Shown here: in pieces, positions 30,697 to 34,578 of the stretch | How the letters are laid out: the number at the start of each line of letters is the position of its first letter | Numbering within the stretch: position 1 is the first letter of the stretch | DNA from: Polyangiales bacterium | Lineage (GTDB): Bacteria > Myxococcota_A > Polyangia > Polyangiales > Polyangiaceae | Assembly (NCBI GenBank): GCA_038231275.1 | Contig: JBBRLQ010000003.1 | Coordinates: 384,001 to 448,000, forward strand | Length of the DNA: 64,000 nucleotides | Direction of reading: 5' to 3' | Program-made: the position numbers and the translations under genes | The notes under the pieces: generated by a model | Database searches by the model: none | What the model saw: the letters and a program-made list of their open reading frames with translations, nothing else | What the model was told of the DNA's origin: nothing

Positions 30697-30725
30697 CCGG
30701 ACGACGCCTCCGCGGGCTCGCCGAG

Positions 30726-30762
30726 AAAAAAAGCGCCCCGCGGGTTTCGTCCGCGGAGCGCT
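30726..30762 (-). terminator. Rho-independent terminator after metallothionein
   Basis: Minus strand AGCGCTCCGCGG-acgaaac-CCGCGGGGCGCT then T-run (TTTTTT). Confidence 0.85.
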
Positions 30763-30786
30763 CGACGCGGCGCGCAGGTCAGCGCG

Positions 30787-30948
30787 TCAGCTGGGGGTGC
30801 TGCAGCACGCGCAGCCGTTGCACGCGCAGGGCTTCGCGCAGCCGCAAGCAGGCGCGCACTCGCAGCCACCCTTCGCCTCGGCCTTGCATGCGCAGGTTTC
30901 GGCGTTGCACTTCGCGCAGGTACAATCGGGGTTCGTCTTCTTCGACAT
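30787..30948 (-). CDS. Metallothionein-like peptide (53 aa, 14 Cys)
   Basis: Hand translation MSKKTNPDCTCAKCNAETCACKAEAKGGCECAPACGCAKPCACNGCACCSTPS*; GC3-biased codons. Confidence 0.85.
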   Translation of the reverse strand: MSKKTNPDCTCAKCNAETCACKAEAKGGCECAPACGCAKPCACNGCACCSTPS

Positions 30949-30986
30949 GACGGTCTCGCTTTCCGAGCACTGGGCTCACCCTTGCT

Positions 30987-31012
30987 GACGCACGCCCCGG
31001 CCCCGCATTACA
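30987..31012 (-). promoter_or_regulatory. Putative ECF promoter for the metallothionein
   Basis: TGTAAT-N16-CGTC overlapping the sigma gene stop codon. Confidence 0.55.
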
Positions 31013-31601
31013 CCGATTCGCGATCGGCTTCGTTTTTACACGTGCACGCGACACAGCCGTGGGTGGCGCACGTCCCGCACGAGACCGCTACCTGCCGCCG
31101 CAGCGCGTCGCGGGCTCGAAATACACGCACGGCCGCGTTGCTCTCGGAGATTCCGCGCTCCTTTGCGAAGTCCTTCACCGCGACGCCGTCGATCTCGACC
31201 CTGCGGAGCGCTTCGGCGTACTCGGGCTTTAGCGTGACGGCCAAGCGCGACACGCAACGGCAGACCTCGGCGCGATCGTCGGGCGACGGCTCTTCGGCCT
31301 TCTCGAGCTCTTCGGCGAATTTGCCGAGCGCGCGATCGGCGGCGCTCGTGCGCCGGTAATAGTCGATCGTCGCGTTACGGAGCGTCCGGTAGAACCACGG
31401 CACGGCCGACTCTCCGTCGCGCAGCGTCGCCATCGTGTCGAGCCCACGGGCGAAGGCTTCTTGGAGGATGTCCTCCGCCACGTCACGCCGACCGACGCGG
31501 CGCTCGAGGAAGCGCAGAAACGCGCGATGGTTCTCGACGAGCGCGGCGATGACCTCCGGATCGCGGGGCCGCTCGGGGAGGTCACTCGGATCGTCGCTCA
31601 T
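31008..31601 (-). CDS. CorE-like metal-responsive ECF sigma factor
   Basis: AEDILQEAF, WFYRTLRN; CRC between sigma2 and sigma4; C-terminal CGTCATHGCVACTC. Confidence 0.88.
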   Translation of the reverse strand: MSDDPSDLPERPRDPEVIAALVENHRAFLRFLERRVGRRDVAEDILQEAFARGLDTMATLRDGESAVPWFYRTLRNATIDYYRRTSAADRALGKFAEELEKAEEPSPDDRAEVCRCVSRLAVTLKPEYAEALRRVEIDGVAVKDFAKERGISESNAAVRVFRARDALRRQVAVSCGTCATHGCVACTCKNEADRESV

Positions 31602-31649: not shown

Positions 31650-32120
31650 TCACACGAGGCGCAGCTCCATGAAGCGCGCGCCGTCGATTGGATTCTCCCG
31701 GTAGGGCGCGACGTCGCGGAAGCCGAGCGATTCGTAGAGCGCGATGGCGGCCTTCATCGACGACACGGTGTCGAGCTTCATCGCGCGATGGCCGGCGGCC
31801 CGTCCCTCCATGACGATGGACTCCGCGAGCCGTCGGCCAATTCCGCGACCGAGAAATCGTGGCCGGACGAAGAGCCGCTTCATCTCGCACTCGCCATCGC
31901 CGATCGCGCGGAGGGCGACGCACCCCGCGACGACGCCGTCCGCGCGCGCGAGCAGGAGACGCCCGGAAGGAGGGGCATACGCGCCGGGGAGGCCCGCCAG
32001 CTCGGCCGCGAAGCCTTGGAAGCCGAGATCGAAATCGAGGGACCGCGCATACTCCTCGAAGAGCGCACGAGCTTCGGGCAGATCGTGCGGCGACGCATGG
32101 ACGACGGTGACGCTCGACAT
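31650..32120 (-). CDS. GNAT N-acetyltransferase
   Basis: EMKRLFVRP..GRGIG, LDT..M.AAIALYESLGF. Confidence 0.9.
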   Translation of the reverse strand: MSSVTVVHASPHDLPEARALFEEYARSLDFDLGFQGFAAELAGLPGAYAPPSGRLLLARADGVVAGCVALRAIGDGECEMKRLFVRPRFLGRGIGRRLAESIVMEGRAAGHRAMKLDTVSSMKAAIALYESLGFRDVAPYRENPIDGARFMELRLV

Positions 32121-32158: not shown

Positions 32159-32947
32159 ATGCTCCGACGCCACGCCCTCGCGATCGCCGTCCTCGCGGCC
32201 TCGGCCGTGCCCCTCTCGTGCACGCGGAGCGGCGAGCCGCGGATCACCGTGGAGCCGCGCACCGCCACCCCTCCCGCACGCTCCACGATCGCGGAGGCGC
32301 CGTCGGTTGCCGCTCCGCCCGTGTCTGCGGCGCCGCCCGTCGCGCCGCGGGCGACCGCTCCTTCCGCGTGGACCGATCCCGCGGTCGTCGCGTCTCTGGC
32401 GAGTGATTGCGGGTGGACACCGCCCAAGAGCGACGCCGAGTCGACGTCCGACTCTCGCCGCGGCGCGCTCTCTTGCGAATTTCTCGTCGAGCAGTCGTGC
32501 GTGCCGGATCCGTGCCTGACGGAGCAAGAGGAGAAGTGCAAGCCCGTCTGCGCGAAGACGTGCGCCTCGTGCGGCACACGCTGCGCCGTCGCGTGCACGA
32601 CCTGCAAGAGCCCGTGCCGCGACGACGCGTGCCGACTTCGGTGCGCGACGACGTGCGGCCAGTGCCGTCAAGGATGCGTCGCAGACGCCGACCGGTGCGC
32701 GACCGGAACCTGCGGCGCCGCCCACGCGCGGTGCGCCACCGAAAAGAACGCGCTCTTCAAGAAGCACGCGGCCGCGTGCAAGAAGGTCTGCGCAGCAGCG
32801 GCCGACTGCCCTGGTCGGTGCTCGGCCGAGCCGGAGGAGAAGCAGGCGGCGTGTTGGACGGCGTGCAAGACGCGCTTCGTCGCGGGTGGGTGCCCGGAGA
32901 TCTTCTACGGCACGTGCATGATGGCAGGCTCGCTCGAAGGCGGATGA
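32159..32947 (+). CDS. Cys-rich lipoprotein
   Basis: PLSC lipobox; many CxxxC. Confidence 0.72.
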   Translation: MLRRHALAIAVLAASAVPLSCTRSGEPRITVEPRTATPPARSTIAEAPSVAAPPVSAAPPVAPRATAPSAWTDPAVVASLASDCGWTPPKSDAESTSDSRRGALSCEFLVEQSCVPDPCLTEQEEKCKPVCAKTCASCGTRCAVACTTCKSPCRDDACRLRCATTCGQCRQGCVADADRCATGTCGAAHARCATEKNALFKKHAAACKKVCAAAADCPGRCSAEPEEKQAACWTACKTRFVAGGCPEIFYGTCMMAGSLEGG

Positions 32948-33734: not shown

Positions 33735-34088
33735 ATGGTCTCGACCTTCGCGGCGTTGGCAGAGCCGAATCGATTCCACATCGTGGAGCACCTCCGCCAC
33801 GGCGCGCGGAGCGTCGGGGACTTGTGCGAGCGCCTCGACTTGAGCCAGCCGCTCGTCTCGAAGCACCTCCGCGTCCTCCTGGACGCCGGTCTCGTCGACG
33901 TCGAGGCGCGCTCCCGCCAGCGGTTCTACGGCCTCCGTCCGAAGCCGCTCCGCGCGCTCCACGACTGGCTCGACACGTACCGCACGATTTGGGACGCGCG
34001 CTTCACGGCGCTCGACGATCTCCTCGTCGAGCTCGAACCCAACACCAAAAAGAAGGAGTCCCCCCATGGCCGCAAGAGGCGAAGCTGA
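33735..34088 (+). CDS. ArsR/SmtB family regulator
   Basis: FAALAEPNR..SQPLVSKHLRVL..AGLV. Confidence 0.9.
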   Translation: MVSTFAALAEPNRFHIVEHLRHGARSVGDLCERLDLSQPLVSKHLRVLLDAGLVDVEARSRQRFYGLRPKPLRALHDWLDTYRTIWDARFTALDDLLVELEPNTKKKESPHGRKRRS

Positions 34089-34578
34089 CCGATTCCAGAC
34101 CCACGCCGAGCGCGTCTCCGACCGCGAGCTCTTCATGCGACGCGTGTTCCGTGCGGTTCGTCAGACGGTCTTCGACGCGATGACGAAGGAAGATCTCGTG
34201 CGCCGCTGGTGGGCACCGAGATCCCTCGGCGTCACGCTCTTCGAGTGCTCCATCGAGGCGCGCGTCGGCGGCGCCTACCGCTACGTCTTCGGCAAGGAGG
34301 GGCAGCCGCCGATGGCCTTCTCCGGCGTCTTCCGCGAGGTCGCGCCCGGCGCGCGCGTCGTCTACACGCAAATTTTCGAGCCGATGCGCGAGGCGGGGGA
34401 GGGGCTCATCACCGCGACATACGCCGACACGGACGACGGATTCACGCTCTTCGAGCAGCGCGAGCTCTATCCGTCGAAGGAGGTCCTCGACGGCGCGATG
34501 GCGTCCGGCATGGAGCGCGGCATGCGCGAGACGCTGGACCAGCTCGCGACGCTGCTCGGCGAGCTCGGGTCGTCGTGA
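34066..34578 (+). CDS. SRPBCC/AHSA1 domain protein
   Basis: RVFRA..VFDAMT..LVRRWW, RVGGAYRY, GMERG. Confidence 0.88.
   Translation: MAARGEADRFQTHAERVSDRELFMRRVFRAVRQTVFDAMTKEDLVRRWWAPRSLGVTLFECSIEARVGGAYRYVFGKEGQPPMAFSGVFREVAPGARVVYTQIFEPMREAGEGLITATYADTDDGFTLFEQRELYPSKEVLDGAMASGMERGMRETLDQLATLLGELGSS

Follow-up and report, generated by a model that had tools for sequence, protein, structure and literature searches.

Can a very short, unannotated cysteine-rich reading frame behind a metal-sensing sigma factor be a real gene, and is it what that sigma factor switches on? The question is raised by a locus in a 64,000-nucleotide (nt) stretch of DNA from a Polyangiales bacterium (GenBank assembly GCA_038231275.1, contig JBBRLQ010000003.1, positions 384,001–448,000 of the forward strand; hereafter the window, whose own coordinates are used below). 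Here, the gene for a CorE-like sigma factor of the extracytoplasmic function (ECF) type is followed by an open reading frame (ORF) for a 53-amino-acid (aa) metallothionein-like peptide in which Cys is the only likely type of metal ligand. A reading made from the letters alone, without database searches (the sequence-only reading), had proposed a minimal circuit in which metal activates the sigma factor, which in turn transcribes a chelator that removes the signal. After comparative analysis we assign a probability of roughly 70% to this interpretation, i.e. a two-gene metal-response module made up of a CorE-like sigma factor, its promoter and a chelating peptide that closes a negative feedback loop. 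The features that carry the argument, in the direction of transcription, are the following.

31601..31008, minus strand: CorE-like ECF sigma gene, 197 aa, stop codon TAA at 31010..31008
31262..31254, minus strand: codons of the linker CxC (C114-R-C116) between the two sigma domains, read from the sequence
31079..31038, minus strand: C-terminal Cys-rich domain CGTCATHGCVACTC, residues 175–188, C175-x2-C178-x2-H181-x-C183-x2-C186-x-C188
31012..30987, minus strand: predicted promoter, with −35 TGTAAT at 31012..31007, a 16-nt spacer and −10 CGTC at 30990..30987, then AGC
30949..30986, minus strand: predicted 5′ leader, ∼30 nt, with a weak Shine-Dalgarno-like GGAAAGCGAG; its start is inferred from the position of the −10 element
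30948..30787, minus strand: metallothionein-like peptide gene, 53 aa, ATG to TGA, stop codon at 30789..30787
30724..30763, minus strand: intrinsic terminator, hairpin at 30763..30731 with a 13-pair stem (10 G-C) and a 7-nt loop, then a T run

The peptide gene and its sigma factor

The peptide begins 59 nt behind the sigma stop codon and contains 14 Cys residues (26%) arranged in six CxC units; His and the aromatic residues (Phe, Trp and Tyr) are absent. All of this can be read directly in the sequence, just as the sequence-only reading had it. The traits by which metallothioneins are recognized as a class (i.e. small size, Cys above ∼15%, CxC/CxxC spacing and few or no aromatic residues) are all found in the window peptide. 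The terminator behind it had been called strong, and its long, G-C-rich stem and T run bear this out; the 1.9-kb region holds two terminator-like sites compared with a shuffle mean of 1.0.

Scanning the whole 9.28-Mb assembly (69% G+C) for small ORFs (25–120 aa, at least eight Cys and at least 18% Cys) yields 42 ORFs. Sorted by eye, the window's peptide is the sole one that starts with ATG, has a non-repetitive CxC pattern and does not look secreted; the remaining ORFs are poly-Cys frames in GC repeats or longer, secreted-looking proteins of disulfide type. The G+C content at third codon positions (GC3) is 0.87 in the peptide frame and 0.83 in the sigma gene and the neighbouring GNAT acetyltransferase gene, compared with 0.68–0.78 in the four alternative ORFs that overlap the peptide. 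Contigs from two DNA runs, which are separate samples within a single study, include one identical 361-base contig spanning the peptide gene; they show only that both samples contain this DNA and bear on neither expression nor selection. Because the ORF is unique in the genome, GC3 is highest in its frame and the promoter box described below is rare (14 copies), these features exceed what chance would give. Judged by these signals in the DNA, the peptide gene is real.

The sigma protein contains the Pfam domains Sigma70_r2 (residues 23–86, E 6e-11) and Sigma70_r4_2 (residues 116–167, E 5e-6) and no others; its best NCBIfam model is SigZ, under the cut-off of that model. The CRC motif and Cys-rich C-terminus to which the sequence-only reading had pointed lie at residues 114–116 and 175–188, the latter with five Cys and one His, and their Cys residues are invariant or nearly so in 14 relatives. 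Both linker Cys are conserved in 14/14 aligned CorE-like sigmas, C175, C186 and C188 are likewise invariant, C183 is nearly so, and H181 is invariant in the nine closest. Sigma homologues with 32–63% identity retain the CxC motif and the Cys-rich domain, and the nearest named relatives come from Polyangiaceae, Nannocystis, Kofleriaceae and Archangium records (52–68% identity).

A linker CxC combined with a C-terminal Cys-rich domain defines the CorE-like group ECF44 (PMC4937300, PMC6851896), which is now placed inside ECF238 (PMC7826278). As described in PMC4937300, the CxC motif is essential in both CorE and CorE2 of Myxococcus xanthus, and the two studied members of the group respond to Cu or to Cd/Zn. 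Both proteins function without anti-sigma factors (PMC3107203, PMC4937300). Among the genes adjacent to the window sigma (i.e. the GNAT and peptide genes), there is likewise no anti-sigma candidate in the form of a membrane or zinc-binding/ZAS-type ORF. By its architecture and the published description of CorE and CorE2, the window protein is placed as a CorE-like ECF sigma (ECF44 within ECF238).

Recurrence of the peptide–sigma pairing

CorE-like loci were gathered in three ways, none of which depended on the peptide: (i) 15 loci from the window's genome and 14 relatives; (ii) 13 loci from named public genomes (Polyangiaceae, Nannocystis, Kofleriaceae, Archangium, Vicinamibacterales, Bryobacteraceae, Bryobacterales, Granulicella, Planctomycetota and Brocadiaceae); and (iii) 48 loci from a sample of 401 genomes of the window's phylum, of which 43 gave matches at E ≤ 1e-30 and 40 supplied these loci. 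A locus was counted as paired when an ORF of 20–100 aa with six or more Cys (15% of residues or above) and two or more CxC units lay within 500 nt of the sigma gene. Pairing was found in 7/15 relatives, 5/13 public genomes and 19/48 loci of the phylum sample, i.e. 31 of 76 CorE-like loci, and the paired loci occur in Myxococcota and Acidobacteriota. Control ECF loci taken from the same searches gave 0/71 by script and 1/72 once locus L017, positive by eye, is counted; this locus, whose sigma has a Cys-rich tail and no linker CxC, had been omitted from the scripted control run. The two-gene pairing proposed from the window alone is thereby borne out in other genomes. The scan that the sequence-only reading had suggested for small Cys-rich ORFs downstream of CorE-like sigmas, here widened to 500 nt on either side, places the window's own arrangement in the minority, with the peptide gene downstream on the same strand in four of the 31 loci (the window included), upstream on the same strand in 24 and divergent in three. 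The 24 upstream peptide genes probably share one operon with the sigma gene.

No third gene is conserved with the pair among the 67 neighbouring ORFs scanned (of 121 candidates) in peptide-positive loci, a scan that excluded frames belonging to sigma or peptide, any frame overlapping either, and the ORFs of the window itself, already covered by a previous scan. What the neighbourhoods do contain are scattered metal genes only (i.e. P1B-ATPase, MerR, ZIP, MerC, HMA and FeoB).

Several individual loci deserve separate mention. The control locus L017 carries, at 1986-2183 on the minus strand, a 65-aa, 15-Cys ORF upstream of a SigZ/ECF24-like sigma gene with a Cys-rich tail, without a linker CxC and without a TGTAA box; the peptide–sigma theme may extend past the CorE clade under a different promoter. 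A 144-aa library match, P0003, has a metallothionein-like N-terminus followed by the C-terminal tail of a CorE-like sigma, and represents a fusion or, alternatively, a peptide–sigma operon that is frameshifted or over-called. In L012 (2322-3091, minus strand), a MerR-family regulator and a Cys-rich frame lie upstream of the peptide–sigma pair. The Cys-rich frame, whether read as 132 aa from stop to stop or as a 97-aa ORF, has no Pfam match. This arrangement may place a second metal sensor on top of the module. In L008 (= L120; G040:C7:104637-108146), the Cys-rich tail of the sigma is in a different frame from the gene body, a sign of either a frameshift or faulty assembly; a second, partial copy is located ∼10 kb away (G040:C7:116025-116312).

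A conserved promoter box

The sequence-only reading had also described a TGTAAT-N16-CGTC box overlapping the sigma stop codon. The box is present as stated, its TGTAAT containing the TAA stop of the sigma gene, and it is characteristic of the family: the strict form has 58 instances at 50/77 CorE-like loci (287 kb) compared with four instances at 3/72 control loci (358 kb). In the first 12 peptide loci, TGTAA(T/G/C)-N16/17-CGTC lies 23–90 nt before the peptide start in 12/12, with one-base variants in two of them (CGTAAG in L015 and CGTT in L025). Positions outside the searched pattern are conserved as well: of the 58 instances, 57 have G or C before TGTAA, 54 have T or A after CGTC and 47 have C two bases further on. 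The window's GGTGTAAT-N16-CGTCAGC agrees with all three of these flank positions.

Across the full set, the box precedes 26 of the 31 peptide ORFs, 20 found by script and six by eye (L004, L012, L033, L119, L123 and L144); in these six the script had taken the longest frame instead of the proper ATG. In peptide-less loci, the same box precedes HMA chaperones and P1B-ATPases (e.g. L106, L110, L111 and L124–L130), cupredoxin-like genes (L022 and L026) or the sigma gene itself (L005 and L006). These comparisons show that the family consensus, (G/C)TGTAA(T/G/C)-N16/17-CGTC(T/A)GC, is a conserved promoter of CorE-like sigmas, and by analogy we infer that the window sigma reads its TGTAAT-N16-CGTC box. 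Since the ECF classification, in its supplement (PMC7826278), reports no conserved promoter motif for ECF238 and a conserved context in one subgroup only, a CorE-family consensus appears to be new to print. In one Polyangiaceae metagenome-assembled genome (L023, from 2433 onward), the box overlaps the sigma stop as in the window and the next gene resembles another ECF sigma, which may represent a sigma cascade.

In the window's own genome, the box has 14 copies on both strands, mostly inside long ORFs, and two of the 14 flank the genome's only two CorE-like sigma genes. The second of these (locus L101, on contig C16 of the assembly, G000 C16:203000-210748) encodes a sigma 55% identical to that of the window, with Ala in place of His181. 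Its box is divergent from the sigma gene and precedes a gene for a 72-aa HMA protein (Pfam E 1e-10) and then one for a 776-aa P1B-ATPase, next to which lies an RND (AcrB-type) pump gene; an HMA protein and a P1B-ATPase beside the sigma gene is the layout described for CorE, whose targets include an HMA protein and P1B-ATPases (PMC3107203). Two further boxes, at G000 C6:316960 and C11:59937 (both minus strand), share a longer near-identical stretch (TTTGTAATACAACTT...) and may be part of a different repeat, not of the sigma regulon. No TGTAAT-N16/17-CGTC box is found upstream of the window sigma gene, which, like that of CorE2, is therefore probably not autoregulated and presumably depends on transcription from upstream.

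Relationships of the peptide

The label 'eukaryote-style', which the sequence-only reading had attached to the peptide, holds for composition and Cys pattern but not for family membership. Neither the eukaryotic metallothionein profiles of Pfam nor that of SmtA/BmtA (Metallothio_Pro) is matched by the 12 aligned peptides (the window's and 11 relatives) at E ≤ 10, and a PDB search with the 12-peptide profile returns a periwinkle (snail) metallothionein as its sole match, at E = 0.016. In a protein-language atlas, the window peptide is nearest to three unnamed clusters (49–60 aa; scores 0.92, 0.90 and 0.89), one of them mostly Myxococcota, and fungal, plant and vertebrate metallothionein clusters score 0.86–0.80, under the 0.9 level; we regard all of these as leads only.

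Direct searches return few proteins. The exact peptide sequence is absent from 15 billion predicted proteins, and a word search with the single window peptide gives zero candidates. The 12-peptide profile finds only four proteins at E ≤ 1e-3 among 1.84 billion and three matches in a word-indexed collection, and the low complexity of the peptides limits such profile searches. Relatives in the protein collection are unnamed or labelled 'hypothetical protein'. By size, composition and Cys spacing, the peptide is metallothionein-like, and on these sequence comparisons it appears to lie outside the described metallothionein families.

Proposed mechanism and alternative explanations

By analogy with CorE and CorE2, metal bound at the linker CxC and the Cys-rich domain would switch the window sigma on, with no anti-sigma needed, and the active holoenzyme would recognise the box at the sigma stop codon. 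The predicted product is a monocistronic RNA of ∼250 nt, with its 5′ end ∼30 nt ahead of the peptide's ATG and its 3′ end at the 30763..30731 hairpin. On chemical grounds, the peptide would then act as a cytosolic metallothionein and sequester the inducing metal, possibly Cu(I), Zn or Cd, in thiolate clusters; with 14 thiolates, a capacity of roughly 4–5 M(II) or 6–8 Cu(I) would be expected. As free metal drops, the sigma would lose its metal and transcription would stop, i.e. a negative feedback. At the 24 loci of operon type, sigma and peptide would be induced together. What the sequence and its comparison display directly are the order of promoter, leader, ORF and terminator, the CorE-type architecture and the conservation of both pairing and promoter; on these, the predicted regulatory link from sigma to promoter to peptide is well supported.

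Several observations weigh against this interpretation. (i) The window's peptide gene has a weak Shine-Dalgarno sequence (peptide ORFs at the other loci are preceded by good ones), and no RNA runs carrying the window DNA are listed. (ii) None of the 12 aligned peptides matches any Pfam family even at E ≤ 10, and the window peptide matches none of the NCBIfam models. The aligned peptides are of low complexity, with a mean column identity of 30%, common descent is not demonstrable from them, and the peptide class may have several independent origins. (iii) As many as 45 of the 76 CorE-like loci have no small Cys-rich ORF, and the closest relatives of the window sigma (L021, L002 and L106) are without a peptide gene. 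In L021, there is neither box nor peptide in the 256 nt of flank up to the contig end; L002 has no small Cys-rich ORF; and in L106 an HMA chaperone fills the same downstream slot behind the same box.

The peptide could also be mainly a regulatory partner of the sigma, i.e. a metal-dependent anti-activator or a metallochaperone to or from its Cys sites that sets the threshold or duration of the response. In 24 of the 31 loci, the peptide gene is directly upstream of a sigma gene with the same orientation, an arrangement typical of sigma/anti-sigma pairs; the pair has no other conserved companion, and in P0003 a peptide seems to run into a sigma-like C-terminus. We nevertheless consider this role unlikely: CorE and CorE2 are described as anti-sigma independent (PMC3107203, PMC4937300), the peptides range from 23 to ∼97 aa with nothing in common beyond Cys spacing, which is hard to square with a specific interface, and the window's peptide gene has its own predicted promoter and terminator. 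Less probable again is a module that answers thiol or redox stress (oxidants or electrophiles), with the sigma Cys sensing oxidation and the peptide serving as a sacrificial thiol buffer. Such a role would agree with the Cys dependence of both proteins, with the dependence of CorE activity on copper redox state (PMC4937300) and with an AhpC/TSA peroxiredoxin gene near the pair in one locus (L109). Its low likelihood follows from the known-domain targets of the box, which are metal-specific (HMA, P1B-ATPase with HMBD/YHS and cupredoxin-like), and the two studied members of the family respond to metals, Cu in one case and Cd/Zn in the other.

There is only a slight chance that a Cys-rich natural product, modified or exported (e.g. 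a chalkophore-like metal scavenger), is made from the peptide as precursor, even though the peptide is small, Cys-rich and without family assignment and its host is of a type that produces many natural products. Radical-SAM, YcaO, lanthipeptide and peptidase families are matched by 0/67 of the neighbouring ORFs scanned, a single ABC-transporter ATPase domain (L015) lacks a peptidase domain, no leader/core division or signal peptide is visible in the window peptide, and the sigma is the only conserved partner. With no maturation enzyme and no conserved third gene among these neighbours, a two-gene unit is therefore favoured over a precursor. Least probable is that the ORF stays open merely by chance, as frames in GC-rich DNA can, with the box serving something else or nothing. 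High-GC genomes do yield many spurious ORFs, four alternatives overlap this one, no gene caller has produced the protein and its Shine-Dalgarno sequence is weak; such an accident is still very unlikely given that GC3 is higher in the peptide than in all overlapping frames, that box, leader, ORF and terminator are correctly ordered, that the pairing occurs at 31/76 loci versus 1/72 and that a comparable ORF is found nowhere else in the genome.

Evolution of the proposed metal-response module

For the proposed two-gene module, a quick maximum-likelihood tree of 76 sigma proteins shows that peptide linkage is clustered, with 12 label changes compared with a shuffled mean of 24.3 and 0/500 shuffles as low. 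Well-supported branches still require at least seven such changes. In one clade of 17 sigmas (13 peptide-linked), the Cys-rich domain is reduced and lacks the second Cys, and another of 11 sigmas, 10 of them HMA- or ATPase-linked, has tails of CGACAA(A/R)GC type; the window sigma falls in a large mixed clade. From these distributions, target cassettes seem to have been exchanged behind a fixed promoter.

A broader proposal, which we favour by a small degree only, is that the CorE-like sigma and the Cys-only CxC peptide form an autonomous, mobile 'sense-and-sponge' module. The peptides would then constitute a third, unannotated class of bacterial metallothionein, and the first under a metal-binding sigma rather than a repressor. 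The module would be present at ∼40% of the loci with a CorE-like sigma, in Myxococcota and Acidobacteriota at the least, and would have been gained or lost at least seven times, swapping with HMA chaperone or ATPase cassettes behind one promoter.

Comparison with known systems

The closest counterparts are the two CorE-type systems of M. xanthus. The CorE regulon (copA, copB, cuoB and MXAN_3427) resembles the window in lying beside the sigma gene and in including a small cytosolic metal-binding protein (PMC3107203); that small target has a one-site HMA chaperone fold, whereas the window's is a multi-thiolate metallothionein-like peptide. CorE2 (MXAN_5264/5265 operon) shares with the window sigma the linker CxC, the Cys-rich domain and the lack of both an anti-sigma and autoregulation (the last being a probable trait in the window), as well as a metal-induced internal promoter, placed right behind the sigma gene, that drives the next gene or genes and that in the window is predicted (PMC4937300). 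The targets of CorE2 are a cation-diffusion efflux pump and a Kelch/glyoxal-oxidase protein, in contrast to a 53-aa Cys-only peptide with its own terminator.

Among bacterial metallothioneins, SmtA and BmtA bind metal through Cys and His, and SmtA is controlled by the repressor SmtB. These cytosolic proteins of the Metallothio_Pro family buffer Zn and Cd, the same class of role that we propose for the window peptide; they differ from it in having a zinc-finger-like fold (PMC7558416), and Pfam, even at E ≤ 10, assigns neither the window peptide nor any of its 11 aligned relatives to a family. MymT of Mycobacterium tuberculosis, when compared by description only, is similar in being small, Cys-rich and encoded by an originally unannotated ORF; it is a 4.9-kDa, copper-induced protein predicted to bind up to six Cu(I) (PMC7558416). 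As the sequence-only reading had stated, MymT is under repressor control: this actinobacterial protein belongs to the RicR repressor regulon (PMC10141476), whereas the window peptide is under predicted sigma control. The protein libraries used returned no MymT match.

A parallel in regulatory logic comes from yeast, where Ace1/Cup2, a Cys-rich transcription activator that is switched on when it binds the metal, directly induces the Cys-only, CxC-type metallothionein CUP1, which lowers the signal. The logic proposed here is the same, but Ace1 is a eukaryotic DNA-binding activator rather than a sigma subunit, and there is no sequence relationship.

As of a statement made in 2020, only two bacterial metallothioneins, SmtA and MymT, had been functionally investigated (PMC7387436). 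The word 'metallothionein' occurs zero times in the CorE and CorE2 papers, the CorE2 context table (65 sigmas), reviews of 2019 and 2022 and the text of the ECF-classification supplement, one CorE2 supplementary file being outside the search. A full-text literature search, which did not cover subscription journals, found no paper describing a CorE-like sigma paired with a metallothionein-like peptide. Within this range of sources, the impression that the pairing is undescribed stands. The CorE-type response is itself known; what appears to be new, on the comparisons made here, is such a response with an unannotated metallothionein-like peptide as its output.

Neighbouring genes in the window

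On the far side of the sigma gene lies one further gene of the same strand.

31650..32120, minus strand: GNAT acetyltransferase gene (Acetyltransf_1, E 1e-16), 48 nt upstream of the sigma gene and possibly co-transcribed with it

Beyond it, a 262-aa ORF (32159-32947, plus strand) encodes 29 Cys with CxxxC/CxxC-like spacing behind a signal- or lipobox-like N-terminus; it has no CorE-type box and zero Pfam or NCBIfam matches. Further along, a gene for an ArsR-family helix-turn-helix regulator (33735-34088, plus strand) overlaps the start of an AHSA1/SRPBCC gene (34066-34578, plus strand); the two form a common small regulator–effector pair and are, as far as seen, unrelated to the present finding.

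Implications

On these results, a whole class of small metal-sponge genes seems to go unnoticed by gene callers and family libraries, and these genes would be tied to a defined promoter and a one-protein metal sensor. The negative-feedback idea is directly testable with two genes and ∼700 bp of DNA, and the same compact pair of parts may be of use in metal biosensing or bioremediation. For the CorE family as a whole, the comparison provides a conserved promoter consensus.

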